The notes under the pieces: model-generated
What the model was told of the DNA's origin: nothing
What the model saw: the letters and a program-made list of their open reading frames with translations, nothing else
Database searches by the model: none
Virus record (IMG/VR): IMGVR_UViG_3300021400_001324
Coordinates: 1 to 64,000 of that record
DNA length: 64,000 nt
DNA from: a virus
Taxonomy: Duplodnaviria; Caudoviricetes
Direction: 5' to 3' (one strand)
Position numbers and translations under genes: made by a program
Part shown: one piece after another, positions 2,254 to 58,922 of the stretch
Layout: the number at the start of each line of letters is the position of its first letter
Numbering within the stretch: position 1 is the first letter of the stretch

Positions 2254-4666
2254 TTAAGCCTCGCGTAGTATAAAGCTCCTATAAGGATTAAATACAGCGA
2301 TTGAAGCATAACCCCAGTTAACTAGCTTAGAACCAGCTACAGTGCTTGAAACTACACCACTGCTTAGACCATCAAGACCACCTACACCAGCAATCTTGTT
2401 ATACATAAAGTCGCCACCCTTAAGAGTGAACATTGCAACAGCAGGATTACCACTAGCACTATCACTAGTTAAATCAATCATCATTGCAAAGCCCTTATCG
2501 CTACCAAACTCACGAGTAAAGGTTCTATCAACGATGAACGAAATTGTATTACCTGCAAAATTATAAGAATTATAGGTAGCACCTACATTAAGATAACCAT
2601 TAGCTTCTTTAGACCATAGGTATGTACCATCTGGTTTATAGTTAGCAAGCCAAGCACCAAGCTTATTTTGAACATCAAACCATGCCTTTTCGTTGCAAAT
2701 AAAGGCATACTTGTTGCCTGTAGGCTTCTCAGCCTTCTGATTCATCATACCAATAGCTGTTTGCATAGCATCAACAGTCAATTCACTATAAATATACTTG
2801 CTAGCATAGCGTTCGACCTGAGGAATCAAACCGTCATACATATAAATAGGACGATTGGTATTAGGATCTACAATAGTTGCTTTACCATTCTTATCGACGT
2901 TACTCTTACCGAATAAAAGGGCACGGTTACGAACCTCAAGGAAGTTCTTTAACAAGTTCTTCTCAACTGTATCCATCTTGTAAATGGTCTCACTTAGAAG
3001 CTTGCCGTTACCGTCACCTTTACCGATAGAAATAAATTGAGTCTCCATCGCTTTATAAAGTGCAGAATAAGTATCATCACAACGATGTGTACCAATATAA
3101 CCGCGATGTTTCTCAATATTGCTCTAATATTTTACATACATTAATGTTAGCTTTATGTCACCATAAAGATCAGACTATATCTTAATCTAAATATTTAAAT
3201 ACAAATCCTTTACAATGTTCTCGTTTTCCTTGTGCTACTAACTTAGCGTTTTTATAACCAGCTTTTACACAGTCAGTCATTGTATTAAATTCTTCAAGAA
3301 GATTTCCATTATCATCAAATCTACCAACTTTACCTCCAACATAAGGTTTGTCAACAGTCCCCATATTTCTATGTTTTAATTTCTTCATAAAGGGAACTTT
3401 TTCGTAAGAAAACTAATAGCCTAAAAATTGATGCCCTTCTTTAATTGCCCTAGGTAAATGACCTCCACCTTTTGCTGAAGGATTTAAAAATCGGCCTGCA
3501 GAATTCACACTATCAAACTCTCTTACAAAATTTCCATCTAAATCATACATATAAACAGCTTTTCTTGGATTAGCACAATCAGGAAGTCTTCCTCCTAACG
3601 CCAGATTATACACATCCTCTCTTTGTAAAAATTCTTTATTTACTAATTCTTCTTCAAGCTTATACGCATCTTTTTCATTTTCAAATTCTTTTATTGTAGT
3701 TCTAACAAAATTTTTAACTCCGTATTTTTTAACTGCGGATTGAAAAGGAGTTTTAGGGTTCATATAAGTTGCAGGCCTATATATTGATACACCGTTTCCA
3801 ATATAACCATCAAAATCGTCCTGTTCCGTGCCATGTACTCCTATATAAATTTTATTATTGATTTTACAGACTGTTTGATATACTATATATTTCATTTTGT
3901 ATTTAAATTTTAGATTTATTCCATTTCGGAGTTTATTTCTCCTACGTCCTTCGGACTAGTCGTTGAACCTTCCTTAGTACTCCTCGATGAGTTTGTATTA
4001 TCTAAGGCTTGGCTGCTGATTGTCTTAAAAAAGAGTTTCCAGCAATTAGAAATATTTTTTTAATTTTTCGCTGTCGTAGCATCAGCGGAAGAGAGCAATG
4101 TAAAAGGACCATAAAGTCTAAGGATCACCCTCTTCGTGTAACTCGGGCATATAATTTGCTATAAAGCGAGCAGTATCACCAACAGAATATTCTGTGGGGT
4201 CAATACCATTCTTTAAATCAGTAGTAATGTATCGACATTCACAAATCCAATAGTTATTAGCTCTACGAATAGGTCTAGCAATTACTTGGAACTGTTCAAA
4301 GGTGTTATCCATACGGAAAGTATCATATTTCTCAAAATAACGCTCTTTGAAAGCAAACATAATAGAAGTACCATTGCAACCATCACCTTCAGGTGTTGCA
4401 GCAAGTTCTATACGTTTAATGTAATTAGTTTCAACCTCCCATTCGAAAGTCATACTGTCGATCGACTGGAACTTATCAGCCTTCTTCAAATCACGATAGA
4501 AGACGTTTCTAAGAGCTTCAGTAAGATAACCTGCTGTAAGCTCAGGATACATTCTACTTACAATACCCAATCTTTCTGGGCGAGTACCAAGGAACTTATA
4601 GAAATCTTCATAAGTTCTTGTTTCACTCATTGTTGGTCTTTTTGTTATGAAATTTGCTACGATCAT
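2254..4666 (-). CDS. Major capsid protein, spliced (exon 1 4666-4127, exon 2 3138-2254), one in-frame TAG
   Basis: Removing 3139..4126 joins NYMPELHEEG to YVKY(TAG)SNIEKHRGYIGTHRCDD...METQF in frame; sequence style and synteny match crAss-like capsid proteins. Confidence 0.9.
3139..4126 (-). mobile_element. Group I intron (IA2-like) in the capsid gene, 988 nt
   Basis: 5' exon ends in U (GAGGGT), IGS GTCCTTTT pairs with it; core motifs AATTGCTGGAAAC, AATCAGCAGCC, GTTCAACGACTA, AAGATATAGTCT; P7.1/P7.2 hairpins; terminal G at 3139. Confidence 0.9.
3182..3895 (-). CDS. Intron-encoded GIY-YIG homing endonuclease with NUMOD1-type repeats, 237 aa, one TAG
   Basis: MKYIVYQTVCKINNKIYIGVH motif; VYMYDLDGNFVREFDSV and GRFDDNGNLLEEFNTM repeats; TAG at 3413-3415 joins the two ORF-track fragments in frame; lies in the P8 loop. 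Confidence 0.85.
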
Positions 4667-14124: not shown

Positions 14125-14428
14125 CTTTGTTATAATCTAAGTTTTTAAAATACTTAATAACTGGCTTAAATACAGTGTCCCAACTTACTAAACTAGCAAT
14201 AAAACTATATAATATCACATTTGAGTACTATCCATTATAACATATTATTCCACCTAAAAGCAATCCGCATATCACAGCTATTATACGTTTTACTGCTGTT
14301 GAGACACCTTTATTTGGGCCGTTAAGCTAATCTATAGTTTTTATAACTAGGTATGTTAATATGTTAACAGTTAACATATAACCGAAGTCAAAACTACCAA
14401 GAAGTAAGTCAATTATTTTTTCCATCAT
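14111..14428 (-). CDS. Putative holin, 105 aa, two TAG
   Basis: MMEKIIDLLLGSFDFGYMLTVNILTYLVI...; 2-3 transmembrane segments, charged C-terminus. Confidence 0.6.
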
Positions 14429-16620
14429 GTAAATCTAACTGTATCGTTATAAGGATTACCGTCATAAAGCTGATTAAGTTCAATTTTAACTTTCTATTTA
14501 TCAATTTCAGTTTGTCCTTCTTTATATGTTCTATCAGTCTAAGCTTGATACCATCTAATTTCTTTATCAGTTTCAAGTTTAGCCTATTCTAGTTGTAACT
14601 TCTATTCGTTAAGTTGCTCTAGTTTTTGAGACATCTACTAGTTCTACTATTGAAGTTGCTACATCTATTGTTGAGCCTATTCAAGTTGTTGTTGAAGTTG
14701 ATTAATCTAGTCTATTTCAGCTTTCTTTTTAGCCCATCCTTTTTTCATCATTTGTTTTAATTCAGTCATACTACGACAAGAAATAGCTTCAGCAGCCATA
14801 TCTGGTTCTAGCATATTAGCCTATATCATCTGTATAACTGTCTATCTCAACTATTCTAAATCTTTAAGAATTTGAGTTGAAGATATAATATGTATATCGT
14901 AATCTGTAACTGTAAAATATTCTGGAAGAATTGTAAATACTTTCTATAAATGATCTCCAAGAATAATAGAACCAGTTAAGCCATTTTTCCACACAATTTT
15001 AGCCATATCAACACAATCAATCAGTATATCAGTAACTAAAGTATCCATTTGTTGATAAAACGGTTTTGTAATCGTAAATGAATTTTTAGCTCCGGCTTCT
15101 ATATTACTTACAGCATCACGCTACGTAATTCCATTTAATCTTTCTCTAAATACACCTGTAATTGATGTTACTTGATTTTCAATACGTTCAAGAACTATTT
15201 CAAATGCTTGAATGGCTTGAACTTTTGTAGCATCATCAAATCCAGACATAAATGTATTGTTATTAAATCCTCTACCTTCTTGTGAAGAATCAATGAGAGC
15301 TGTACCACCTTTTTTATATGCTAACCATTTCTAGATACGTTCTGTCATATCGGAACCTAAAAATGCAGGAAGCATTGAAACATCGAGCCAATCTCCAATT
15401 GTACCACTATTAGCAAGAAGATTATCACGTAAGAAAATAGTTACATCATAACGATCTTGTAAAGTTGTACATTGTAAAACGAGACTTGTTGGTAAATTAT
15501 CACGGTTCATCATAAATATACCACCTACTGATAACTTACAATGTCTTGGAGCATCTTGTGTTCTTACTACGTTTTGTGATAATCCAGTGGGAATATATAT
15601 AGAATTACCTATACGTACACCCTCATATCGATTCTGGATATATTTTCCGTCTTGTTTATCTACATCAATCCATTCGACTTCAAATACAGGAAGCAATTTG
15701 TACATATAAGTTTCGTATCCATCAATTGGAAACCCAGGTACTACTCGTTTACCATTATCTAAATCTCCTTCCATTGGAGCATGAAGTAATGAATTATTAT
15801 GGGTAGTAACGTACATAAAATTTCCATCTTCATAATGATTATGCATATCATTAAGTTCAGATATCGCATCACGAGTCATTCTATCACCATACTCTGCAAG
15901 AATTTGTTCTCTAGTCATCCATTTACGAATAACTACTCGATAACTATCTTTAACGTATGGAGAATCTGGGTTTCTGTCTACAAATGTATTTAAGGGATTA
16001 AGACATTCAATAACTAAATTAGTACCTTCTGGTGAAGGTTTTGTACGATAAAAAGCACATCCAGCTATTAACAAGTCTTGGAGTAATATTCTTTTCTTAT
16101 TTGCAAGATCGGTTACTCTAGATTGAGATACATAATCTATAACATTTTGTGCTGCTATTTCATACTCACTTATAAAATTGTTATCAATGTCTTCGATAAG
16201 TTTATTTATTTGCTAATCAATAGCTGGATCTTTTAAATCTTTTCCATTTACAAAATCAAGAATTTGTTTATTTAAATCCTATTTATATAAATTAAAAAGT
16301 TGTCGTTTTATCTCAAGTAGTTTATCTCTATTTATGTTAGTTAGAGTCTATTCATCTTTACAAGAAACTTTAGCAATTGTAGGTACGTCCAAATATTCAC
16401 CAAGTAACGCATCTACATGTTTTTTAATCAGTGGTGTAAATTCAACTTGAGTTGGATTACCTATACCAAAGTTTTCTTCAAGATACCTAAACTATTCAGA
16501 ATCTCGCCTACCATTATAGTAATTGTAAGCTTTCTATAACTTAAATTTATGATGGACGAGTTCATTAATAGCTTTGTCTACTTGTTCTATTACATATTCT
16601 TTACCCCTCGCAGCAGCCAC
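14425..16620 (-). CDS. Portal protein, about 731 aa, GTG start, many TAG
   Basis: KAYNYYNGRRDSE(TAG)FRYLEENFGIGNPTQVEFTPLIKKHVDALLGE; follows terminase; includes fragment 15331..16074. Confidence 0.9.
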
Positions 16621-16879
16621 GTGTAAAATATAATTTTTTTAATTCTGAAAATTCTATACTGTCCCAATGAATCTTTCGTAGTTCTTTACATATAAAATTA
16701 AGAAACTATTCTGCATTTCCATCAAATGCACATTCATAAGGAATATCATTATGTCCAAAGCCTAACTATAATTTATAACCAGATTTAAGTTTAATTACTT
16801 TGATCATTCCAGTATATTCTTTTTCATAAACGTTTTTAATAATATCCAAGACTGCTGATTCTAAGTCTTTCGTATCCAT
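16601..16879 (-). CDS. Small conserved protein between terminase and portal, 92 aa, two TAG
   Basis: MDTKDLESAVLDIIKNVYEKEYTG...; overlaps both neighbours in the usual tight operon style. Confidence 0.6.
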
Positions 16880-28615: not shown

Positions 28616-30484
28616 TCATGAGTAAGTTTCGTTAAACTCGCTTTCTGGTTTTATTCTATCTGCTATATCAACCCACCCTGTTGCAGTTTTGTAACTTTCC
28701 AACAATGCGTCTGGAACATAGATGTCACAGGTGATGTTGGCTAGATTGGCGTTCCATGTCGTCACAACGCTTGTGTTGGTGAGGTGCAGCTTCTGCAAGT
28801 TTGTCATGCCTGAAATGTTGTTATTCAATGTCTTTACCGCTGTATGTATGGTAAGCACCTTTAAGTTTGTCAAGCGGGCAAAGTTAAAAGAAGTCGAGTT
28901 AAAGCTCAGCTTTGTCATTGAGGCCACCCGCAAATTTGGGACACCACGATAGAACAAATATGCGCCATCATAATACCTATCAGTCGTCCTGCCACCATCC
29001 ATGCGGAACTCCACGAGGTTAGGCATATTGAGAAAATTTCCTCCGGAAGAACTAGTTGCACCATAAAATACGTCTGTCACCCATTCGGGTATCACAAGCC
29101 TTGTAATGTTGGGCATCTGACCAATTGCGCCTGCAGCAATCTTTGTACATGTTTGCGGTATAACTACTTCGGTAGCAGTTCTGTTATACCAGTACAGAAT
29201 TGAGCCGTCTTTGCTCCATATGCTGCCATTCTCCATCTTGTAATAATCATTTTCACTTACTACATTACCAGATTCGTCTATAAGTTCCATTACATAGTCT
29301 TTGACAGGCAAAGATTTGTCTGTATATTGCATGTCAGTAAATGCCGCACGGTTATTAACTTGAATACCAACATCCATAAAAGGCCACCATCCATTATCTC
29401 CCTCGACTATATATCCTCCTATCTGCACGCGGTCAAGGATGTTAAATTTGAATGAGTTACCCCCATTAGCATTAGTGTATCCTACGAGTGTTGTGTTGCC
29501 AAATAGCCTGAGTAGTTTGAACCGCACAGCATTTGTATTATATCCATTATAGCTATAAGACGCATTAGCAGAGCTAATGCGAGCATTTATAAATGTCACT
29601 CTAGCAATTTCACATTGATGCCCATTTGAGCCACCAAATTGGGCGCCACTAAAATTATACCCAGGTGGGTAAGTCACAACTCTCTCGGGCATATATGATA
29701 TTGGATAATTCACATTGTCCCTGTCTTTTACATTGACAAAGTACCTTAGGTCATCTAGATTGGGTATGTTTTTGGCATCGAAGGCGTTGAAAAGTTGCGA
29801 CATTCCAGTCACAGCCTCGCACTCGGCTTGTGTTATTCCGTACTTTGATTCACAAAGGCCCTTTTTGTAGAGATGTGCTACGAATGGTGCGTTGTTTCTT
29901 CTGTCTATTATATATTTTGACCAGTCAATGTAGCTTACTTGCCTCCTCCTTAACATCGAGTTTACACTCACACCCAATACATCAGTCAAGTAGGCTGCAT
30001 CATACACCATCACCTCCATCGTCAGTGTACCCTTGAATTTCCTGCCACGGAAGTCGCCGTTCTTCCACGTGTCACCTATGGTCAACGGGCCTGTGTAGGT
30101 GATGGCACTGATATTAGCCGTAAACACATCCCCATTGGGTGCAGTGTAGGTCAGTGTGTTGCCATCTTTCTCTACCACAACATGGTAGTTGCCACCTGTG
30201 TAGTTCTTTTTGCCCATGTTTGGATTGCATTGGAACTGCATGTTCAGCGAGTTGGCGCCATTGATTCTGAAATTCATCCCGTGCCACGGAGAGCCACTCT
30301 CGTCTTGGCATGCAAATGCAGTTGCGAGGTCTGCATTTCCTGCCGCTGGAACAATGTCTGCCGTTATCTTCCAGTGGTCTGATTGCCACAGGAGCAATCC
30401 TGTGTTTATCGCAAAGGTGCCGTCAAGCGCAAGGTCTGTGCAATGCCATGCCGGTATATACTCTGCCATAATCAATCCCAACAA
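28616..30484 (-). CDS. Receptor-binding/tail protein with lectin-like N-terminal domain and BspA-type leucine-rich repeats, 622 aa
   Basis: Intact and TAG-free; VVIPQTCTKIAAGAI, LVIPEWVTDV, CDIYVPDALLESYKTATGW motifs. Confidence 0.75.
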   Translation of the reverse strand: MLGLIMAEYIPAWHCTDLALDGTFAINTGLLLWQSDHWKITADIVPAAGNADLATAFACQDESGSPWHGMNFRINGANSLNMQFQCNPNMGKKNYTGGNYHVVVEKDGNTLTYTAPNGDVFTANISAITYTGPLTIGDTWKNGDFRGRKFKGTLTMEVMVYDAAYLTDVLGVSVNSMLRRRQVSYIDWSKYIIDRRNNAPFVAHLYKKGLCESKYGITQAECEAVTGMSQLFNAFDAKNIPNLDDLRYFVNVKDRDNVNYPISYMPERVVTYPPGYNFSGAQFGGSNGHQCEIARVTFINARISSANASYSYNGYNTNAVRFKLLRLFGNTTLVGYTNANGGNSFKFNILDRVQIGGYIVEGDNGWWPFMDVGIQVNNRAAFTDMQYTDKSLPVKDYVMELIDESGNVVSENDYYKMENGSIWSKDGSILYWYNRTATEVVIPQTCTKIAAGAIGQMPNITRLVIPEWVTDVFYGATSSSGGNFLNMPNLVEFRMDGGRTTDRYYDGAYLFYRGVPNLRVASMTKLSFNSTSFNFARLTNLKVLTIHTAVKTLNNNISGMTNLQKLHLTNTSVVTTWNANLANITCDIYVPDALLESYKTATGWVDIADRIKPESEFNETYS

Positions 30485-31569
30485 TTATACGTTAAACAAC
30501 CAGCGTAGTCTATAACACACTCAAACCGCCTCCCAGTGGCCATCTCCATCTCCATGTCCACAGGCAGCTTAATACCGCTAGGCAGCGTCAGTGTAGTAGA
30601 ATCACTTACACATGTAAACGCAAACTTATAGAGGTCATAGTTCGTCATAGTTCCACCACTCAACGTGACCGTCAGCGCACTCACCGTACCAAAGTCACGG
30701 TATTCGTTAACCGTCAGCGCACCACTGGCCGTATTGGTGATGGGCGACACATCTTGTTTGCCTTGCAATGCCGTGTATACTCCACCGCTAGTCACCAACT
30801 TATCACTGCTATCTACAGGTACATTGTCTAACTCTGATAATGTAGATTTATGAACATAAATGGCATTCTGTGCAAAGACTGACACTACAGCATAACCGTT
30901 ACTTTGAAAGTAAGGGTAAACCGATTCAGGCCCAATTAACACAACACCATCACTAAGTTCATCATCGTCGTTATTATAAGTTAAATAACCAACGTGCAAT
31001 CTACTAATGATATAATCATTTTTAATCAGCCCTATTGTAAAGCTTGTGTTTCGCTGCAATGCAGCTAGGACATCAGCAGGAGAAATAGGGTTGGTTATAT
31101 TCATATCTACGGCACGGTAGAAAGTCACTCTGTTGTTATTGCCAACCACTCCAACAATGGCATTATTCATATTAAGACCCATTAGGACAAGATCAACACC
31201 ATTAAAATATTGTGCTAACCCATCGCTAGTAACAGGATTGCTGGAACCATAAGTCGGAGCAGAGTCAAACGTAAGTTTGTCCTATTTATCACCAAGAGCT
31301 ATGTTTAACTCAGGATTGGTTACATAATCTAAATATTCTTCTTTATTTACAGTGCCTAATGACTCCCAGGTATCATTATTCCAGATAAACTATTCATAGA
31401 CGTTTGGGTCTGCAATGCTAGGCATTAAATAAAGATAACCTTCTTTTCCATACTCGGGAAGTTGTTCTACTACAACTTTCTAAGATATGGATTTAAGTAT
31501 TGCATCTGTTTCTTCTTTAGTATAAAAACATTTAGGATGTTTTAATTCTTTTAATTCTTCTAACGTCAT
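30472..31569 (-). CDS. Chimeric tail-fibre protein, 365 aa (N-terminus with three TAG, C-terminus TAG-free and GC-rich)
   Basis: MTLEELKELKHP...VVEQLPEYGKEGYLYLMP...K(TAG)DKLTFDSAPTYGSSNPVTSDG joins fragment 30472..31182 in frame. Confidence 0.7.
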
Positions 31570-31718
31570 GCAAAGTCAAAAGCTATAGTTACTTTTCTAT
31601 TATCTATTTCCTCATTTACGGAATCCCATTCAGAATTAAACACTAGGGCATATCCTTCTACTAGCCTAGATTCTGGTGATAGTCTTAACTCTAAACTGTT
31701 GTTTCTTACTTCTTTCAT
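31566..31718 (-). pseudogene. 50-aa fragment resembling the N-terminus of an HK97-type prohead protease
   Basis: MKEVRNNSLELRLSPESRLVEGYALVFNSEW then TGA; no catalytic region. Confidence 0.5.
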
Positions 31719-32248
31719 CAATCTGTATAATAAAAAATAATGTTGTTTAAGAATTTGTCTATCAGTTCTTCTGATTCATCATCATCACAGTCAAATGAAA
31801 ATTCAGATGATGCTTGTAGGCATTCAATCAGACTCTCTGTTTTAAATGGTACATCAGGACTAAAATTTTCTATTGTTTCTTCACTAAATTGATTTTCTTC
31901 TGCTGATATTCCATAATTAAAAACTTTCTCAAAGTACTTAAAAATATCTGGTACAACTACTGGTGTTGTACTTGCTATTGAGCCACCTATATTTTTATTG
32001 GTAAATACTTTGTAAACCCCATCTTGTTCAAAAAACTGTAGTGTCCACAATGATGTAGATAGATAAAGATTGCCAACATTATTTATATTAGGGTCATTAA
32101 AATCAATTTCAAATGGTTGTACTTTAATATATCTGATATTTGCGTTTGTCATTGTATTAGCATCAAAATCTTTGGCTGATATAGACTTCCAACCGTGTAC
32201 CGCACAATTAATTAAATCGTAATCTAAATTTGTATATTTAAGTTTCAT
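31718..32248 (-). CDS. Hypothetical protein, MxLxYxLIN family
   Basis: MKLKYTNLDYDLINC...; intact, ends in TGA. Confidence 0.6.
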   Translation of the reverse strand: MKLKYTNLDYDLINCAVHGWKSISAKDFDANTMTNANIRYIKVQPFEIDFNDPNINNVGNLYLSTSLWTLQFFEQDGVYKVFTNKNIGGSIASTTPVVVPDIFKYFEKVFNYGISAEENQFSEETIENFSPDVPFKTESLIECLQASSEFSFDCDDDESEELIDKFLNNIIFYYTD

Positions 32249-32304
32249 AGTTTAGCATTATAGTTAAAATAGTTATATAATGGATAATATCCGTACCCTC
32301 ATAA

Positions 32305-32904
32305 TTAATTGCCTTCCTCTGTTTTAATTGGTATTACTTCATCTAAAACAAATTTCTCTGTTTTTAAATCGTATTTAAAACAGTATGCTTTCATTGCTTC
32401 AAATGGCATTTCAATAACATTGCAACTAACGCCTTCATCGTTATTATAAAAAGTAATAGCCATACTATTACAAGGTTGTAGAGCATAGAATATAACCCAA
32501 GGATACCATCCCAAAGACGAAGCAATGTTGGTTTGATAATTCTCAATGTCTTCAGCAAAATCCATATCTTTTGCTCTCGGATATATTTTTTTACAAAAAT
32601 CATAAACATTACCATTATCACAAGACGATATCCTTAGAACAACATTAGCAAAACCCCAAAACTATACGTCAAAATTTTTGGTTTGTAAGTCTGAACTATT
32701 ATAATAAATTATACCCCTCTTTATCTCTTCTTTTTTATTCTCATAATCCAAGAATTGAAGATTAATTACTTGTGGGTTATCTTTAGTTGCGGCATACCAA
32801 TTTGTATTTTCAGGACAATCTTCTATTACTGTAACTGTTGGCTTGTTATGTGAATCTGAATTATTCTTGTTAACTGAATTAATTAAATTATAATCAAGTT
32901 TCAT
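32305..32904 (-). CDS. Hypothetical protein, MxLxYxLIN family, one TAG
   Basis: TAG at 32662-32664 joins fragments 32662..32904 and 32305..32565. Confidence 0.6.
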
Positions 32905-33650
32905 TCGTAATGTGTATAATATGGAAATTCTGGTTGTATTATCTAATATTCATTTTCAGGATTAAACACTAAAGGTAAAAACGGCTAGTTTTTAGAATAT
33001 CCTAAATTTGTGAGATCTTCTGATTCTATATTGTTGTTTGCATAATAAGGTATGAACCAACAATGTTTATCACCCTCTATACGATGAAGTATCATTGGAA
33101 ACATTTCCTCGTGGATTAAACATTCTTTAATATGCTATTTAAAATAGTTAATAAATTCTTCCGATTCATAACTATCAAAATCAGGATGTTGGTATTCGGT
33201 ATGTTCTGGAGTAAGTAATACTGGATCATTCACAAATAAACGTATACCTCCTACGTCTGGATCTTCAATTGCACTTACTATAATCTTTCCTATGTACTCG
33301 TCTCCAAAATCAAGATATATTGTATAAGAGTGTGCTTCCGAATTTAATTCAATGTGGTTAATGGGTATTATTAGTTGCAAACCAAAACCATCTTCAAAAA
33401 AAACAAATCCAAGCGGATAATCGTTTACATTATAAGATTTGTTACACTCTGAGAGAACACGTTCTATCGTATCGTTAATCCCGAACGTGAACTCTTTAGC
33501 ATAAGGATATGCCACAAAACTTCTAACTTTAGTTGGAGTTGCAATAGGACGCCCTTCTAAATCTGAAAAATACTCGTCTAAAATAGTAGCCGCTTCTTCC
33601 TTTTTATTAGAACTAGTAATCGTATTAATTAAACTATAATCAAGTTTCAT
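32901..33650 (-). CDS. Hypothetical protein, MxLxYxLIN family, three TAG
   Basis: Read-through from TAG at 33135 to TGA at 32901. Confidence 0.6.
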
Positions 33651-33834
33651 TGTATATTATTTTCTAATTTTTAGATGTCATATCTTCTAAATGCTTTTTC
33701 TTAGGAGTTAATAAAATTCCATCTTCCTAGGCATCAGATTCGACTATACAGTCTATAATCTTTAACATTGTATCAAGTTGGTACCTCGGAAACTCCTGAT
33801 GAAGCTTCTTCAGTGTTGCTATTTTGTCTAACAT
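33640..33834 (-). CDS. Small conserved protein (LKKLHQEFPRYQLDTMLKIIDCI), two TAG
   Basis: ATG 33834 to TGA 33640, in frame. Confidence 0.5.
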
Positions 33835-34015
33835 TTTCATTCAATTTATTAGTTAACTCTTTTATCTAAGAATTTAAAGTATCTATTTGCTATAAAGCGT
33901 TATTATATTGATTTTGTAAGTAATCAATTTTCTCCTACGCCTAATTTAAAGAAAGCTCTAGTTGACTTTCAACATCAGCTAGAGCCATTCGCACTTTACG
34001 TAATTCTATTATCAT
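33773..34015 (-). CDS. Small coiled-coil protein, 80 aa, four TAG
   Basis: MIIELRKVRMALADVESQLELSLN(TAG)A(TAG)EKIDYL... Confidence 0.5.
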
Positions 34016-34138
34016 AAATTCATTTTCGCTTGAAATCTTTCTTTATATTCTAATGGATCTGTTATTTTAGAATTATAAACATGTCCAGGTTTAATGCTGT
34101 CATAAGGGTGTATAACAGGCATTACAGAAAGCTTTTCA

Positions 34139-34366
34139 TTAATCTGTTTCAATTGCTCCAATATTTCTTGCAGTATATTCATTTTCATCCATCATTGTTA
34201 TACAAGTATTTAAATCTTCATTTGCTATTTTTCTTTGTACCAATTCTATCGTTTCATTAATCCGAGTTTGGAATAACTCTAGAATCATTAACATATCTTC
34301 CCAAGTTAAATCAGAAATATCTGATAAAACGTCATATTTCATACAAGTTATAAGCAGATCTTTCAT
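34139..34366 (-). CDS. Hypothetical protein
   Basis: Intact 75-aa ORF, no TAG. Confidence 0.5.
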   Translation of the reverse strand: MKDLLITCMKYDVLSDISDLTWEDMLMILELFQTRINETIELVQRKIANEDLNTCITMMDENEYTARNIGAIETD

Positions 34367-34492
34367 CCTCTTATCGATATTTCATTAAGTGTATCAAGCC
34401 ACGATAGGACTTCTTGTTCATCTTGTAATTCATTTTCTTCAATTATATCCCACACTTTGTTTGCAAGATATATAACAGTATCCATCAAGATT

Positions 34493-34798
34493 TTAGTCTA
34501 CTTGTTCATAACCATCCATTTTCAGATTATTATAAATTGATGTTATACTCCACCCAGTTTGTCTATTTATATAATGGTGAAGTACAACTTTATCTTCATC
34601 ATAATTAACCTCAGAAGCTTTTCCATTCATTTCTTTACATAAATCTTGTAAAGTTGCATTAGGCATTTCTTTTATTATCTTGAAATCTCCAGAAGTCTTC
34701 TTTGCTTTCTTCTGGAGATTCATACAGTAATTCATTTTACCATTTAATTCATAAATTCCAGGACAAGCTGGAATATCATTAACATTATTCATAAACAT
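34493..34798 (-). CDS. Hypothetical protein (start moved to 34798)
   Basis: MFMNNVNDIPACPGIYELNGK...; the ORF-track N-terminus to 34870 overlaps the tRNA 3' exon and is spurious. Confidence 0.55.
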   Translation of the reverse strand: MFMNNVNDIPACPGIYELNGKMNYCMNLQKKAKKTSGDFKIIKEMPNATLQDLCKEMNGKASEVNYDEDKVVLHHYINRQTGWSITSIYNNLKMDGYEQVD

Positions 34799-34809
34799 AT
34801 AAAAATTAG

Positions 34810-35104
34810 TCCTCCTCCTAGGATTCGAACCTAGTCTGTCGGTTTTCGTACTACACTTGCTTTTATACAAGCCAACTAACGTGAGTTGTTGTAGTCTGGA
34901 CTATTTCTTTATCCACATGGGATATTCCCTATATAGTCTCTACGCCATTTATCACAATCGTGAATTTAGTAAGCCGTCGCCAAAACTAAAGTCGCCTTTA
35001 GTGAGGTTTCCGTTTGTTAGGGGAATTATTCGATATACATTGCTGTATAAAGCTCCATTTTACCTTTAAGAGACCGTCTTGCTAACCAATTACAACAGAG
35101 GAGA
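34810..35104 (-). tRNA. Amber-suppressor tRNA(CUA), split by a group I intron (exons 35104-35069 and 34846-34810)
   Basis: Spliced cloverleaf: TCTCCTC TG TTGT AATTGGTTA GCAA G ACGGT CT-CTA-AA ACCGA CAGA CTAGG TTCGAAT CCTAG GAGGAGG A; no encoded CCA. Confidence 0.88.
34847..35068 (-). ncRNA. Group I intron, 222 nt, between anticodon U35 and A36
   Basis: IGS GGAG pairs with exon CTCT with a U.G at the splice site; P3 ATTCCCCTA/TAGGGAAT; P7 GAGACTA/TAGTCC; AAAGAAATAGTCCAGACTACAAC; P9 closure ACTACA/TGTAGT; terminal G at 34847. Confidence 0.88.
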
Positions 35105-35147
35105 GAATAAACCTCTTATTTAACCTTAAGAGGTTCTTTATTATCTA

Positions 35148-35504
35148 TTACTCACCAATTGTCATTCTTAACAATTTCATAAGTGATCTTTCATCTAGTT
35201 CATTTAATACTTTCATTATTTCTTCAAGCTTCTTCATATCGGGACGCTGAGAAAGATAATCCTCCAACGTATGAATAGCTTCTTCAAGAAGTTCTCTATC
35301 TTCTAGAATAGCATCATTACTCATAGTTGAAATTTTTGCAAATACAGGATGTTCTTTATATAAATCAAGTATTTCATCATCTTCTACCAAGTCTAAAAGA
35401 CCTGATGCGTACTCATACATTGCAACTGCAATATTATGATTGTACTTTTTCTGTAGTTCTATTATTTCATTTCTCATATAACAAATATAATACATTTTTT
35501 GCAA
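35148..35504 (-). CDS. Hypothetical protein directly upstream of the suppressor tRNA
   Basis: Intact, TAG-free; true start may be ATG at 35495 or 35477. Confidence 0.6.
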   Translation of the reverse strand: MQKMYYICYMRNEIIELQKKYNHNIAVAMYEYASGLLDLVEDDEILDLYKEHPVFAKISTMSNDAILEDRELLEEAIHTLEDYLSQRPDMKKLEEIMKVLNELDERSLMKLLRMTIGE

Positions 35505-35521
35505 TAAAACAACAAATATTG

Positions 35522-35529
35522 CAAATTTA
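35522..35529 (-). promoter_or_regulatory. Bacteroidota sigma -7 promoter element
   Basis: TAAATTTG matches the TAnnTTTG consensus; no clear -33 TTTG seen. Confidence 0.4.
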
Positions 35530-35565
35530 ACGTTTGTTAATAGTTCTTTTTAATAAACTCGTAGA

Positions 35566-37845
35566 TTAATTAATGAGACCTAATACTTTAGCAAAATAGT
35601 TAGCATATCTTCGTCTTATAGGAGATCCTTGACCTCCACTTCTTTCATAATGTTTCTCCCAAGCATCAGTGATAGCATCTATGTTTCTAAGATTTCTAGT
35701 AGCTTTATTAAAACCAGCAAATCTCTTAAAAAATTCTCTTTGCCATGGTATTTTATTACTGTCTTGTAATTTTCCCATTAAACCGTCTACTAAAAATCTC
35801 ATTTGATGCGCTTTACTATAGCCTCCGTAATTTTTAATAATCCAATTTTTAGCATCTGTTTGGTTTTGAGTCAATCCGTGATATTTACCATGATGGTTCG
35901 CATTAGGATCAAATGCACTTTCTAAAGCAATGTTTCCCAATACTCCAACGGCTACATAAGGATTTATACCTGCAGCAACTAATTCTCTATAATAAGGTTC
36001 TGCTTTTTTCCACATAGCTTCGTTTTCTACATCAACTCTAGATTTTCCACCTTTTGGTCCAACGTAAACTGTCTAATCTGGAAGTGTTAAAATTGGAACT
36101 CCTCCAAATTGGAATTTACGAGGGATTAATTTTCTGCCTTGTTTTGCATAAGAAATATCATTAAGCTTACGCTATGGTAAATTGTAAGCAACTTCATTTA
36201 ACATCTATATAAGTTTTTTTCTACTAATACGCCCTAATCTATCACGAACCTGACGACTCCAAGTGTAACTATCTAAATTATCATCTTCTTTAAACACTTT
36301 ATCTGGACTAATATTGTTATCTTTTCTAAACTAATTTAAAGCAGCATATAATTCACTAGGACTAGTATAATAAGTATCCCTATTATCTGAATTAGATTTT
36401 TCGTTATCGTCTAAATCTTCCATTATCTTTGCGATAGCTATTTCCTACGGACTAAGAGTCCCACTTCTTTTTAAAGCGTGTGTAAATTCATGAACATCTG
36501 TTGAATCATCTGTATACGGTAAATATACATAAGGGATTTGCGTTTCAAAATCTGGTTTTCTAATATAAACATGAGGAAAAGTATCAGTGGGATTAAGAGA
36601 ATCTTCTGGAACCTTTTTTGTATAAAGTTCTGTATTTGCAAGTCGATTTAATTGAGATTCTATAGTTTCATCACTTCCTGCAGCTAATTTGTTTTGTTCA
36701 AACTATTCTTTTCTTTGAGGTAACCACCAATGTAACCAGGTATTTTTCCCAACTAACGTAGGTTTTTCATTTAAAGAAGGTTGTATTGTTGTTTGTTTTT
36801 CTAGTTGTGGTGTTACAGTATTTTCGTTTACCTATGAATTATTATTTTGATTTCTATGATACAATCTATTTTGTGCTTCTCCTTTTAATAAATTAATTGT
36901 GTTAATTAAATCATCTTCTGGAATAGACTCATAAAATTTTTGAAATCTTTCATTATATTCTGGAGAAGTTGCAATATTTAAATCTATATTGTTTTGTTCT
37001 GCAAACCGTTCGTATAAATGCTATCCTAACAATCTAGTAATTTCAGCATTTAATTCTTCTTCGTTATTTAAGTTACCTCCAGATTGAAACTTGCGGGAAA
37101 TTAGTTTCCCGCCTTGTTTTTTGAGCGATTCATAATATTCAGCTCCTTTTGCAACTGCATTTTTATAAGCTGGCATTCTTTCTTTAGTTAAAGGTATGTA
37201 AGTAATAGTAGCATCTCTAAGTCCATCAGGTTCTTTTATAGTTTTAGCTCCAGGTACTTTTTTAGCTAATTGCTCTACAATAAAAGGAGTCATTATAGGT
37301 CTCCATGTAGAGTTAGATCCATCAAATTCATTTCCTAAAACATCATCTAAAAATCGATAAGTACTATCTGAGCAATTATTAAATAAAAAATTGTAATTAG
37401 AATCATGCATTTTTCTAGAAACTAAAAGATTTGGTCCGCGTACTTCAGAATGTGAACTGTAAGGATAAGATTCTCCAGCAAACGGATAAGTTATTACCTA
37501 AAGATGTGGTGTTCCATATTTAGTTATTGTAGGAAGATTTGCAATTTTTCCGTTTTCAAAATACTTATTAAATCGTTCATCAATTTGCTATTTTCTATAG
37601 TCCATATCTCTATTTATATACTGTAGTTCTATTGGATCATTTGAATGATATATAGATTCATTCCATTTCCAAGAATTGTATAACTCGTTAGGTACTGATC
37701 CGTTTCTATAAGGATCGTTATCATCTTGATTTATAAAATAATATCCTTTATACTTATCCGCGTAATCTCTTAAAGCTTCATTTGCTTCTTTTACAGTACG
37801 ATATTTTATAGGCATGTTAGGTTCTTTATATTTTTTAATCATCAC
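35566..37845 (-). CDS. Multidomain virion/ejection protein, 759 aa: permuted papain-like + HExxH zincin + tail lysozyme; many TAG
   Basis: YSSHSEV...YNFLFNNCSD; VHEFTHAL...SELYA; GVLGNIALESAFDP; four ORF-track fragments in one frame. Confidence 0.75.
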
Positions 37846-37878
37846 ATAGAGTTTACAAATTTTTATTAAATTATTAAT

Positions 37879-38841
37879 TTATTCATAAGGGCGTAATCGT
37901 CTTTTTGGCTCGTTTTTAGGTAGTGATGTTTTATATATAGCCCTATATAAACCTTGAGTGTCTTGACCATATTGGTTTTTCAATCTTGTATAATCTTCAG
38001 GATTAGTAGTTTCATAATTGCGAATATAATTATAAGCTTCCTCATTATTCCAATCTGTCCCAAATACATTATTTACATAATCAGATACCAAATCAGGATT
38101 AGTTTTATTCTATTCTCTTAAAACATCGATTAAGTTTTTATAGTCGTCAAATGTAACTCCATTATCTTCATTAAAAAATTCCGAATACAGAGGAGTATCA
38201 TTTATACTTAATTCCCCAGGTTTCTATATATCAGATGACATTCTCTTTCTGAAAACATCCAGATTATTATTGTTTATAGAATACTTATTTTGTTGGTCCC
38301 TAAACTTAGCGTTAGTACCAGCTATCGATGAAGCTAATATCGATGTAGGTAAATAATCATTCTACTTCATTCTCCCTTTTATATAGTCGCCTTTTTTATC
38401 ATCACCTTTTCCTAACCCTATATCTTTAGTAAAATAACGTGTTTGTTTATTTAAAGCCATTCGCATTGCAGTAATTGCATTTTGATTGTATCCAAATTCA
38501 GAATTATCTTTATCTGCTTCGTACATATTATAACGTGTATCTCCTCGTAAATCTTTAGGAGATGTGTATAAAGATGCGTATCTTTGTAGCTAATCCTACG
38601 CAAAATCATTTGTGATAGATGGCATTTGAGAATATTGCGTAACTGGTATTGGTTTCTAAACTTGTTCATTCTTCTGAGTGTTGTACACTTTTGCCCAATC
38701 TTCATCAGATTCGCCTTTCATTCGTGTTGTGTAACTTTTACCATTATAATCAAATATTTTTTTTCCTTCTTTTCTAGCATTTGCAAATGCTCTAGCAAAA
38801 GCGCTACTTCCTCTTCTAAATTTTGGTATTAATGTATTCAT
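37879..38841 (-). CDS. Virion/ejection protein, 320 aa, TAG read-through
   Basis: MNTLIPKFRRGSSAFARAFANARKEGKKIFDYNGKSYTTR...; in frame with fragment 37879..38091. Confidence 0.65.
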
Positions 38842-38842
38842 A

Positions 38843-40423
38843 TTATATTGTATAAAGTGGATTATTATAATCGTATCTGGATTGCTTTTCAGATTTTTTT
38901 ATCTTATTTTTCTATATCAGTTCTTTTTTTCTTGGTTTTGAAGAATATGTTTTAGAACTTTGATTATTTTTTTTCTTAAGAGTTTTAGTCTATTCGTTTT
39001 CTTGTCTGTTCACACCTGATTTTTCTAAACGCTGAGTTTTAATTTTATTTTTTATGGAATCGATTGTATTATTAAATATAGTAAATATATTTTTTTGAGA
39101 TGTACTGGAACTATTTGATTTACGAGTTGCAATACTGCTTTTATTTGTCATACGAGTAGACTAATTAGTTGTTGATAATGTATACCAAGAATGCTTTGGT
39201 TCCTCCTTTTTTAAGTACTGTGTGTAATCAAACTTATATTTATCATAAGGATTATAATGTATAGCGTGATCAAGTTTTTCATAATGCTGTTTCTTTTCTT
39301 TAAACAGCTATTTAATATAATTTATTTTAGCAGATATATTCTTATCTACTCTTTCTCGTTGCTCTCTTATTTTTGTTTCTTCAGGAGATAAAATATATAA
39401 TCCGTTTCCGGCAGATCCATTCAATCCCCTATATTGTATCCATGTATTTCTATCTATAAAACCACTATAAGTTCTTAATCCAGTACTATGTGATCCTAAA
39501 TCAAAATAATATATTTCACACGGTTTGCCTCCATGTCGTTGTCTCATATCTTGTATTATAGCATCAATCTAATTTGCAGAACCTAAAGCTACCCTAGCCT
39601 CATCATCAATTTTTACAATACATCCACCTCCTGTAGTATGTCCGTACTAGTCGTCTCTTTTGTTTTTATCTCCAGAGTCACCAATTAATAAACCTCCACT
39701 AGTATTGCCATCACTATCAATTAAAACTGGATGTCCCTTAGACCAAACTATTTTGTTGTTTGCATCTCTCTAAAATCCCAAAACGTTTTTCCGTGTAGGC
39801 ATATATGTAACTAAATCATTTGGTTGGAAGTTATCAAACTTAAGATTTCCGTATTTGTCTACTCCCATAAGTTTCCCACCGCCATACCAAGGTTTAGCTA
39901 TTGAATAAGGTCTAAATGGTTCAAACGTAGTTATAATCATACCTGGTGTCTTCACAGGCTTCCAACTGATATCTTCAGGATTTCCTTTATATTCAACACC
40001 ATCGTCTGTATACTATTTGATATTATTTCTTTTCGCATTATGTACTCCAAATCTAGTTTCCGACAAATTGACAGATCCCGGCAAAACATACTGATCTGGA
40101 CGATGTTCTAACTAAATAGTATCAGTAGAAAACCATGTTGCAGGATATTTAGTTTGTGTTGTGTCCTATTGCTAAGGTATATATGCTGTAGATATAGGTT
40201 CTTTATCTGCGGTATGTTGCTAATAGGTTCGTACACCTTTATTCCAGACTAATTGGAAAATATCTGTAAATTTTCCATTCCTCCACCATTCTTTAACATC
40301 ATCTGGAATCATATTTGAAATACCTTGATTTATTTCCCTAGGATTATATATTCCATAATTTGGATTAAATGTACCTCCATATATAGGGTCATAAATATTC
40401 TTATTTTTTATTAAATCATCCAT
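38843..40423 (-). CDS. Virion/ejection protein, about 526 aa, TAG read-through
   Basis: Fragments 40220..40423, 39770..39955 and 39308..39547 share a frame; TAA at 38843. Confidence 0.6.
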
Positions 40424-55416: not shown

Positions 55417-55487
55417 TGAGATTTGGTGTAATGGCAGCACACAACATTTTGGATGTTGTAGTATAGGTTCGAATCCTGTAATCTCAA
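55417..55487 (+). tRNA. tRNA-Gln(UUG)
   Basis: TGAGATT...CAACA TT-TTG-GA TGTTG...ATAGG TTCGAAT CCTGT AATCTCA A. Confidence 0.9.
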
Positions 55488-58040: not shown

Positions 58041-58766
58041 GATCTCGTAGCTCAGCTGGTTTTTAGAGCACCACACTTTGATTTAAGAGTGCTATGGCGA
58101 GAAATCCCATAGTAGAATCACCCAAATTCGGTGAAAATCCTTTTCTGAATAAATGGCACATGATGCAAACTGGTTATACCTTAAGGAGTGCCAGCACTAA
58201 CCAATAATGTGTAAGGACAATACCGAGCGAAAATAAGTTTAAATTTGTATGAATACATGTACGTAATACAAATGACCATTGCAACAGATAAGCACTAACA
58301 ACAATGGGGGTAGTGCAACTTATAATCGTGTAGAGACTGAACGGGTGATACCTAAGTTGAAATTGATATCCATATTAAGCATTGATAGTGATGCTGCCTC
58401 GAAAGGGTGAAACAAAGTGCAAATCTTTGAATATGAATCTTGCAAGAATTTCAATATGGTAAAGAGACAGTGAGGTTTAACCTCCACTAACTAATGTTAG
58501 ACTATAACAAATGCGATAGTATAGAGCTGTCACGGCTGTTCGGCTGATACAAACCGAATAATAAATGTGTAAAAGTTGATTTGTTTCAAACTATCGGTGA
58601 TATCTTATTTGATTATAGTAATATTAGTTAGTGCCAGACCACAACAAATGACCCTACCCAATGGGTGAATGTCAGGGTGGGAAGGAACATTCTCAATCAT
58701 TTGGCTATGGTAACATAGAGTGGTAGGTTAATGTGGGAGTCCTGGGTTCGAATCCCAGCGGGATCA
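58041..58766 (+). tRNA. tRNA-Lys(UUU) split by a group I intron (exons 58041-58078 and 58728-58766)
   Basis: Spliced anticodon arm CCACA CT-TTT-AA TGTGG; acceptor GATCTCG/CGGGATC; A73. Confidence 0.85.
58079..58727 (+). ncRNA. Group I intron, 649 nt, no ORF, with an insertion inside P7
   Basis: IGS TTAAGAGTG pairs with the 5' exon CACTT (U.G) and the 3' exon TTAA; P3 ATCACCC/GGGTGAT; GTAGAGACTG; P9 closure ACCAC/GTGGT; terminal G at 58727. Confidence 0.85.
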
Positions 58767-58922
58767 CTAAGCAGATTATCTGTATCGGGCACCGACCCTA
58801 AGGTACATACGGATACAGATGGTGAGTAATAGAGTTCGAGGATTGTTAGTGAAATAGACTTTGAAGCTGCAATACGTGCTGAACCATGAGCGGTCGGAAC
58901 GTCTCTATTAAATCTGTTTTTC

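Follow-up and report, generated by a model that had tools for sequence, protein, structure and literature searches.

A group I intron within the anticodon of a predicted amber-suppressor tRNA in a recoded crAss-like gut phage

Group I introns of bacterial tRNAs have been sorted into classes by Williams (2020, doi 10.1101/2020.01.27.920355); that preprint raises the number of classes from 4 to 21 and points out that the Rfam group I seed holds no bacterial sequences. One of these classes, Leu.3Ug, an IC3 intron of tRNA-Leu(UAA) with the junction pattern CUU/a...g/AAAA, has a core homologous to, and alignable with, that of the intron described here, and the R and S elements (GUAGAGACUAUA and AAAUAGUCC) are identical. 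The two also share the set of helices, a site in the anticodon loop, the U·G pair at the 5′ splice site and the omega-G at the 3′ end. They differ in that our intron has a CUA suppressor as its host, lies at site 35/36 ('4Ug') rather than at U34/A35, and uses the guide GGAG rather than GAG(U). Judged by these features, it is a derived relative of Leu.3Ug that falls outside that class. The other introns of the anticodon loop (fMet.2Ug, Arg.5Ug, Ile2.5Ug, the last known for example from Azoarcus, and 17 further classes) likewise self-splice within a 7-nt loop. All of these classes were drawn from bacterial genomes, and the running text of Williams 2020 speaks of neither suppressors nor phages, though one of the classes in its table may yet overlap with the present intron.

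As for phages, a 2014 review (PMC3984707) found every group I intron known from phages at that time to lie in a protein-coding gene, although phages carry many tRNA genes. The 'enigmatic' introns of Lak tRNAs (Devoto 2019, PMC6784885) resemble the present case in phage group and in being conserved introns of phage tRNA genes; they were found in Tyr, Phe, Gly and Thr tRNAs with tRNAscan in eukaryote mode and were not classed as group I, and the Sup-CTA genes listed in that study, for some of the genomes, are intron-less only. Intron-less tRNA-CUA genes of code-15 phages do the same job as that proposed here, namely decoding of the UAG codons that crAss-like and Lak phages use for glutamine in their late genes (Yutin 2021, PMC7886860; Borges 2021 preprint; Peters 2022, PMC9523058; Crisci 2021, PMC8346664), but those genes are continuous and can be detected by tRNAscan, whereas the window gene is split. 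A TAG suppressor was reported for 38 of 51 Lak genomes, leaving 13 of the 51 without one (Crisci 2021), and recoded genomes without a detectable suppressor also appear in Yutin 2021 and in a 2025 paper on Zeta crAss phages. A ribozyme step in the maturation of gut-phage recoding tRNAs has been described before: theta (minimal HDV-like) ribozymes lie by phage suppressor tRNAs (Kienbeck 2024, PMC10879173). The theta ribozyme, however, belongs to another class and flanks the tRNA, cleaving it free, whereas the group I intron of the window sits inside the anticodon and would have to be removed by splicing; introns are not mentioned in that study. Our search of the full-text literature, with subscription journals outside its scope, returned no published group I intron in a suppressor tRNA.

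Dependence of a suppressor on its anticodon-loop intron is familiar from yeast, where Johnson and Abelson reportedly found in 1983 that tRNA-Tyr ochre suppressors of the SUP6 type need the intron for pseudouridine-35. The window tRNA would resemble these in needing its anticodon-loop intron for suppressor activity; the difference is that the yeast intron is eukaryotic, spliced by proteins and located at 37/38.

The locus lies in a window of 64,000 nucleotides, that is, the whole stretch of DNA that was analysed, from a crAss-like gut phage. Its minus strand holds, at 35104-34810, a tRNA gene split inside the anticodon by a group I intron (Table 1). In exon 1, the acceptor strand TCTCCTC and the D arm are followed by the anticodon-stem strand ACGGT (35077-35073) and by the loop bases C32, U33, C34 and U35 (CTCT, 35072-35069); the acceptor, D and anticodon stems all covary among 11 homologs. 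Exon 2 resumes with A36-A38 (34846-34844) and the anticodon-stem strand ACCGA (34843-34839) and continues through a variable loop of four nucleotides, the T arm, which contains TTCGAAT, and the acceptor strand GAGGAGG to A73 (34810), the CCA being absent from the DNA. Exons ligated in silico (CUCU/AAA) give a canonical cloverleaf of 74 nt with all four arms, a 7-nt anticodon loop and the anticodon CTA/CUA, to which exon 1 contributes C34 and U35 and exon 2 contributes A36; all four stems covary in the homologs. The layout given in the preliminary description (ACGGT-CTCT, a 222-nt intron, AAA-ACCGA) thus agrees with the sequence and with covariation, and its claim that the CUA anticodon would exist only after removal of the intron is upheld by the homologs and by the ligated cloverleaf. 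The same description had predicted that intron-blind scans would miss the gene. Indeed, neither default ARAGORN nor the Rfam tRNA model at its gathering score makes a call here, while 8-9 other tRNAs of the window are found. With the intron option, ARAGORN does report the locus as a split tRNA, with the precise limits c[34809,35104], but its placement of the intron is arbitrary and it calls the product Arg-ACG.

Table 1. Coordinates of the split tRNA gene, of intron helices and of neighbouring or client features in the window
Feature	Positions	Strand	Description
tRNA exon 1	35069..35104	-	Acceptor 5′ strand, D arm, anticodon-stem 5′ strand and loop bases; from the sequence and ARAGORN -i
Group I intron, 222 nt, no ORF	34847..35068	-	Starts TAAAGG, ends GTAGTACG; omega-G at 34847
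tRNA exon 2	34810..34846	-	A36, A37, A38, anticodon-stem 3′ strand, variable loop, T arm, acceptor 3′ strand, A73
P1	35053..35072	-	Exon CUCU (35072-35069) with internal guide GGAG (35056-35053); 5′ splice site marked by the U35·G wobble
P7 pseudoknot	34898..34940	-	34940-34934 with 34903-34898; encloses the P3 3′ strand (34929-34925) and P8 (34924-34910)
P9.0	34850..34895	-	34895-34891 with 34854-34850; encloses hairpins P9 and P9a; omega-G three bases downstream
Palindromic terminator-like hairpin, 9 bp	35110..35135		Separated from the tRNA 5′ end by 6 nt on the upstream side; one such hairpin where 0.1 were expected
Small TAG-free ORF, orphan	35148..35504	-	Just upstream of the tRNA
Small TAG-free ORF	34493..34798	-	Starts 12 nt downstream of A73
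Portal gene, 23 in-frame TAG	14428..16638	-	Pfam P22_portal; example client of the suppressor

Similarity searches placed the intron in a family. A blastn search with the intron and its exons matched the crAss-like phage cr115_1 (E 2e-30), found further homologs in Lak megaphages B1, B3, B6 and B9, and gave short matches to the core in Twort-like Staphylococcus phages; the exact 18-mer of the core occurs on 47 viral contigs and a looser pattern of R and S elements on 30. The generic Rfam model turned out to be of little help: RF00028 aligns to the window copy over its full length (35080-34865) with 14.4 bits and E 0.73 when 1 kb is searched, against a gathering threshold of 50, and the Rfam group I model finds no match when 316 nt are searched. 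This score is too weak alone, and the case for a group I intron therefore comes from the relatives. One of them (L047) scores 56 bits (E 3.6e-11) with the Rfam group I model, above the curated threshold. A covariance model built from 15 relatives only, with the window left out, recovers the core of the window intron with 159.5 bits (E 1.4e-30) in a full-length match that ends exactly at G34847, the runner-up within the window reaching 15 bits. The check with Infernal that the preliminary description had suggested is thus equivocal with the generic model and clear with the family model.

Structure comparison leads to the same family fold. RNAalifold applied to 18 pre-tRNAs recovers the acceptor, D and T stems together with P2, P3, P4, P5, P6, P6a, P8, P9.0, P9 and P9a, and compensatory changes occur in 45 of its 56 pairs. 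The helices of the intron run P1-P2-P3-P4-P5/5a-P6/6a-P7-P8-P9.0-P9-P9a. A full structure, which includes the P7 pseudoknot, P1 and the anticodon stem spanning the intron, was assembled manually for 11 class I CUA pre-tRNAs. In these homologs 96.7% of cells are paired, as compared to 40-44% when the partners are slid by 1-3 columns; both sides change in 45 of 79 pairs, and none of 500 shuffles reaches any of the measures. P1 of the CUA-type homologs has the U·G, the next C-G and the U-A in 11 of 11 cases each and the last C-G in 9 of 11. Moreover, the guide changes with the exon, being GGAG in the CUA type and GAG(U) in Leu-type relatives, where the exon reads (A)CUU. P7 (GAGACUA/UAGUCC, with a bulged A and a G-C guanosine-binding pair) is paired in all homologs, and its motif is invariant in 18 of 18 family members, so that it yields no covariation signal of its own, while P3 and P8 do covary. 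All five pairs of P9 and two of five in P9a covary, P9.0 is 98% paired, and L2 is a GNRA tetraloop in every family member. The omega-G is present in the window at 34847; two relatives (L010 and L019) have A there. A single-sequence minimum free energy fold of the intron was uninformative (z = -0.71). Taken together, the homolog structure and the family model bear out the earlier statement that P1, P3, P7, P9 and the terminal G are intact, and by these comparisons the element is confirmed as a group I intron.

The position of the junction deserves separate consideration. According to the preliminary description, only ligation after U35 would fit. The junction after U35 holds, but a terminal U and G combined with a 7-nt loop do not make it unique on a single sequence. 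When every possible U/...G/ junction was listed with ARAGORN as judge, many were accepted; the program tolerates shifted stems and odd loops and so does not discriminate between junctions. Uniqueness comes instead from the closing pair fixed by covariation, from P1 with P9.0 and from the homologs. All five pairs of the anticodon stem that spans the intron covary, with 98% of cells paired. Its closing pair, 32-262 in pre-tRNA numbering, is AU in 4, GC in 4 and UA in 3 sequences, and C33 and A261 never pair, which means that the loop consists of CTCT and AAA. Since P9.0 ends three bases before the omega-G, an alternative 3′ site would fall inside this helix. About 16 distinct homologous pre-tRNAs of crAss-like and Lak phages, with about 11 different tRNA bodies, all follow the pattern CTCT/.../AA plus A or C, and hence give CUA. 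Finally, the intron-less tRNA-CUA of Lak-B2, which shares 82-85% identity with the joined exons of two split homologs (L022 and L025), reads ACAGAGGTCTCT-AAAACCTTT across the predicted junction, the same as the ligated L022 exons.

The genes around the locus appear to need such a tRNA. If TAG is read as sense, ORFs of at least 250 aa cover 0.74 of positions 1-46500, a minus-strand block, instead of 0.13; the same treatment of TGA makes no difference (0.14), and that of TAA lifts the value only to 0.22. In-frame TAGs are few in the block on the plus strand that begins near 47 kb and contains the ordinary tRNAs. The split gene thus lies, as had been claimed, on the late strand among TAG-containing genes; those recognised with Pfam include a Crass_capsid protein and a P22-like portal. 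In an alignment of the portal with 115 full-length homologs, in which TAG codons were entered as X, Q outnumbers every other residue at 16 of the 23 TAG columns and accounts for 53% of their cells against a background of 6.7%. Judged from this alignment, the assignment of TAG to glutamine in virion genes holds. No second CUA tRNA was found in the 77.8-kb contig. Relatives of this phage are found on contigs of 100-190 kb, so the contig is probably incomplete, another suppressor could lie outside it, and the lack of a second CUA tRNA is weak evidence for the window phage. Two complete genomes are more telling. In cr115_1, the continuous tRNAs are Arg-TCT and two Leu-TAA only, and in Lak-B1 there are 28 tRNAs including Sup-TTA but none with CTA; in both, the split gene alone provides a CUA tRNA. 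Furthermore, loci with a split CUA tRNA gain long ORFs specifically when TAG is taken as sense, whereas loci with the intron in sense tRNAs do not.

The identity of the amino acid is indicated by the code more than by the tRNA itself. The earlier assignment to glutamine agrees with the codon alignment, but the likeness of its D and T arms to the tRNA-Gln at 55417 is not distinctive: compared with the phage's own tRNAs, the window tRNA body has 41 identities to Gln, 47 to Ile and 46 to Asn. Among 263 phage tRNAs the nearest is Trp-CCA (0.72), and with T at position 10 the body is not recognisably Gln-like. Two observations do speak for Gln: the nearest relative of four sister CUA tRNAs (L051, L048, L023 and Lak-B1) is tRNA-Gln(UUG), at 0.74-0.75, and U1 is common to all class I members, their 1-72 pair being weak or absent. 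The phage's own tRNA-Gln(UUG) has U1-A72 and A73, and the window tRNA shares with it U1, a weak 1-72 pair and A73; thus, A73, previously regarded as atypical for Gln, is not atypical in this phage. From the code, we infer that the window tRNA is charged with glutamine.

The immediate surroundings offer few clues. The gene is flanked by two small ORFs and a terminator-like hairpin (Table 1); the upstream ORF is an orphan and so provides no synteny anchor, and a PHROGs search with the neighbouring large ORFs found almost nothing. A permissive Rfam scan of 34500-35500 for an HDV-like fold gave no match. A scan for sigma-70 promoters stayed at chance level (6 found, 6.9 expected). Upstream of the orphan ORF, at 35529-35522, there is a putative Bacteroidetes-type -7 box, TAAATTTG, by consensus match only. 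No match resulted from a megablast of positions 30000-40000 against phage records.

Where else the intron occurs is informative as to its origin. Besides CUA tRNAs, its subfamily is hosted in phages by tRNA-Leu(UAA), at the classical U34/A35 site, tRNA-Ile(UAU) and tRNA-Lys(UUU). With one genome per species, the R/S pattern is found on 59 bacterial contigs, nearly all of them from metagenome-assembled genomes of gut Bacteroidales; 34 of these loci are a split tRNA-Leu(UAA), one is a tRNA-Lys(UUU) and none is a CUA tRNA. Among the viral contigs with this pattern, CUA tRNAs make up 13 of 30 loci, an enrichment that is biased because the viral sample was seeded from the window intron. Comparison of the guides suggests how the change of client may have come about: pairing to C32 and U33 is kept in the CUA type, the old wobble G forms a Watson-Crick pair with C34, and one added G serves as the new wobble partner of U35, so that the splice site lies one base further 3′. 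The introns are more conserved than the exons that host them (mean 0.74 versus 0.66, with introns higher in 37 of 55 pairs) and reside in unrelated tRNA bodies, including three of class II with long variable arms and G73 (L047, L056 and L059). At the Lak-B locus, with identical flanks, there is either the split CUA tRNA (B1, B3, B6 and B9) or a different, intron-less CUA tRNA (B2, B4, B5, B7 and B8). No intron-less or sister allele of the window tRNA itself was matched on viral contigs with probes for the ligated junction, exon 1 and the T arm of exon 2. A probe modeled on P1, CTCT-N(4-14)-AGGAGCTTTA, hit at least 120 loci on viral contigs; the intron core was present in none of the 120 matches listed, and we rejected these loci as chance matches rather than further introns. 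Taken together, the distribution of the intron, its conservation and the alternation at the Lak-B locus speak for a mobile intron, one that passed from tRNA-Leu into suppressors and would be dispensable for the recoded lifestyle.

The explanation that we consider very probable combines these lines of sequence evidence: the gene would encode an amber-suppressor tRNA carrying, at U35/A36, an ORF-less group I intron of the Leu-type subfamily, the spliced tRNA would read UAG as glutamine, and the intron would be a tolerated passenger. In the modeled course of events, exon bases C32-U35 of the folded pre-tRNA would pair with the guide GGAG to form P1 with its U35·G wobble, and free guanosine bound in P7 would attack after U35. 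P9.0 would then place the omega-G (34847) in the P7 site, the exons would be ligated, and the loop CUCUAAA would thereby acquire the anticodon CUA. After end processing and addition of CCA, the tRNA would read UAG as glutamine and so allow translation of the TAG-rich late genes, among them those for the portal with its 23 TAGs, the capsid protein and large structural proteins. As the anticodon would arise only upon ligation, every suppressor molecule would have to pass through a ribozyme step. The distribution described above suggests that the intron itself is most likely mobile or selfish, a passenger tolerated by the phage and not a timing device that has evolved as such. In practice, the intron keeps the suppressor out of sight of annotation.

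It is also conceivable, although doubtful, that the intron is not just tolerated but kept in CUA suppressors by selection, because, with the anticodon missing from both the DNA and the primary transcript, it delays or tunes the switch to code 15, insulates the host from an amber suppressor that would otherwise be toxic, or shields the anticodon loop from anticodon nucleases of the host up to maturation. Were this so, the one-base shift of the splice site and the change of the guide from GAG to GGAG would represent an adaptation of the host-clade tRNA-Leu intron to a new client.

A more specific regulatory role was put forward in the preliminary description, namely control of the code switch, and with it of capsid, terminase and lysis expression, by ribozyme splicing. 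In this reading, the intron would be retained since a self-splicing step that is slow or conditional retards or adjusts suppressor supply and hence sets the time at which TAG-bearing capsid, packaging and lysis genes are translated. Several observations can be read in favor of this hypothesis. Maturation would be strictly dependent on splicing, as the anticodon is absent from the DNA; the gene lies inside the late block with TAG-free small ORFs on both sides; the core of the intron is conserved by covariation; and the intron is found in CUA tRNAs at viral but not at bacterial loci, subject to the bias of the viral sample. However, recoded sister Lak genomes manage with intron-less CUA tRNAs at the same locus, and the same intron subfamily resides in sense tRNAs and in the tRNA-Leu of the host clade, where no gating is needed. 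We also found no ligand-binding, alternative-pairing or other regulatory feature at the locus. Finally, tRNA group I introns usually splice fast, which is a further point against gating. Thus, the idea of a timing switch has the standing of a hypothesis, and on the present evidence splicing is unlikely to time the change of code.

It is far less probable that the gene is dead, either unspliced or uncharged, with UAG being read by an off-contig suppressor or a host factor. The contig has no terminal repeat and is shorter than those of its relatives, the basal position of the anticodon stem is an A·A mismatch in the window copy, and the introns of L010 and L019 have A, not G, as their last base, all of which can be cited in favor of this reading. 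Against this, the core helices are all intact and covarying, the guanosine-binding pair, the U·G and the omega-G are all present in the window copy, and the same design provides the sole CUA tRNA of two complete recoded genomes (cr115_1 and Lak-B1). As for the possibility that a different junction makes a sense tRNA, such as the Arg-ACG that ARAGORN itself calls by joining CU/...GTAG/UACG, where a U likewise precedes the 5′ cut and a G closes the intron, it is hardly credible, given that it would leave a 9-nt loop under the covarying closing pair 32-262, cut inside P9.0 and leave the invariant U·G of P1 unused, that the same rule yields mixed anticodons in the homologs (ACG, ATG, ACA, AGG and AAG) where CUCU/AAA gives CUA throughout, and that the intron-less Lak-B2 homolog fits the CUA junction instead.

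Overall, there is strong support for a phage amber suppressor gene interrupted at position 35/36, within the anticodon loop, by a group I intron of the tRNA-Leu lineage. This extends the hosts of phage group I introns from protein-coding genes to tRNAs and links the present one with its counterpart in tRNA-Leu of Bacteroidales, the host clade. Recoded crAss-like and Lak gut phages are among the most abundant human-associated viruses, and intron-split CUA tRNAs would account for some of their 'missing' suppressors. The suggestion made at the outset, that such genes could explain recoded phages with no detected suppressor, is borne out for cr115_1 and for Lak-B1, B3, B6 and B9. Since split suppressors are hidden from standard finders, annotation pipelines need an intron-aware tRNA step. 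More broadly, our results suggest that the switch of genetic code in these phages would depend on RNA catalysis, and whether the role of the intron is neutral or regulatory thereby becomes a testable question.

The split tRNA-CUA is not the only interrupted tRNA gene of the window phage. A tRNA-Lys(UUU) gene is likewise divided, in this case by an intron of about 650 nt (Table). Rfam Intron_gpI matches positions 58053-58474 with 25.5 bits (E 3e-4). Our covariance model of the intron family (R1) matches this intron weakly, in its 3′ part (58549-58727). The split tRNA-Lys(UUU) was not found by ARAGORN -i.

Split tRNA genes of the window phage and of relatives (positions in the window or in fetched loci, L-numbers; a slash marks a splice site)
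Feature	Location	Strand	Characteristics
split tRNA-Lys(UUU)	window 58041-58767	+	CTT/...GG/TTAA, guide GAGTG, intron ~650 nt
class II split tRNA-CUA	L047:8224-8539	-	long variable arm, G73
class II split tRNA-CUA	L056:436-740	+	long variable arm, G73
class II split tRNA-CUA	L059:1616-1915	+	long variable arm, G73
split tRNA-CUA	L010:750-1034	+	intron ends in A, not G
split tRNA-CUA	L019:8891-9173	-	intron ends in A, not G

The capsid gene of the same phage (2257-3973, minus strand) may be split too, through a frameshift or a further intron. The Crass_capsid match in the ORF at 2257-3264 spans only profile positions 227-316 of 496, and the ORF next after it, at 3182-3973, overlaps it. The genome represented by the whole contig (77,829 bp) is probably incomplete, since the contig has no terminal repeat, portal homologs of 57-91% identity reside on contigs of up to ~190 kb, and a 116.8-kb contig record holds an identical portal fragment.

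In Lak phages, the intron-split tRNA-CUA is part of a swapped cassette: Lak-B1 (L002, 411668-412718) and Lak-B2 (L005, 414368-416089) differ in the cassette within identical flanks. At this locus Lak B1, B3, B6 and B9 carry the intron-split gene, whereas B2, B4, B5, B7 and B8 have a different, intron-less tRNA-CUA within a longer insert. Lak-type contigs (L003, Lak-B2, 291038-294104; L008; L052) also contain a tRNA-Leu(UAA) gene that is interrupted by a ~348-nt group I intron (AGGGA CTT/AAAA TCCCT); this intron is not included in the list of Lak tRNA introns by Devoto 2019 (PMC6784885). In the bacterial collection (genome_contigs, L211-L269), tRNA-Leu(UAA) is interrupted by the same intron subfamily as in the split tRNA-CUA at 34 loci, almost all of which belong to gut Bacteroidales MAGs (Prevotellaceae, Cryptobacteroides, Paludibacteraceae and others). 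Mis-binned phage may be among these contigs.

Immediately 5′ of the split tRNA, cr115_1 (L001:1441-1485) and two further relatives (L019, L013) share a conserved motif, CCCTTACGTGGAGGG...ATCCACGTG, which could form an H-type pseudoknot (CCCT with AGGG and ACGTGG with CCACGT). The window lacks this motif 5′ of its split tRNA-CUA and has a simple palindrome in that place. Elsewhere, a RAGATH-1 hammerhead ribozyme (L022:1110-1213, minus strand; 73 bits) lies near a split suppressor, and a permuted tmRNA (L009:3067-3353, minus strand; 68 bits) lies inside a tRNA array.

Two further groups of split tRNA-CUA occur among the relatives. One intron, with the 3′ end GTAGTACA/AAC, is common to L010 and L019, whose tRNA bodies differ. 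With its guide, GGAC, the fourth pair of P1 becomes C·C, while the G-binding pair of P7 is the same as in other members. These introns are either inactive or spliced at an unusual 3′ site. The second group comprises the class II genes, including the family member whose intron exceeds the Rfam group I threshold (L047). The closest tRNAs to their bodies are mostly tRNA-Ser, and tRNA-Leu for L047. In these phages, the residue inserted at TAG may be other than Gln.
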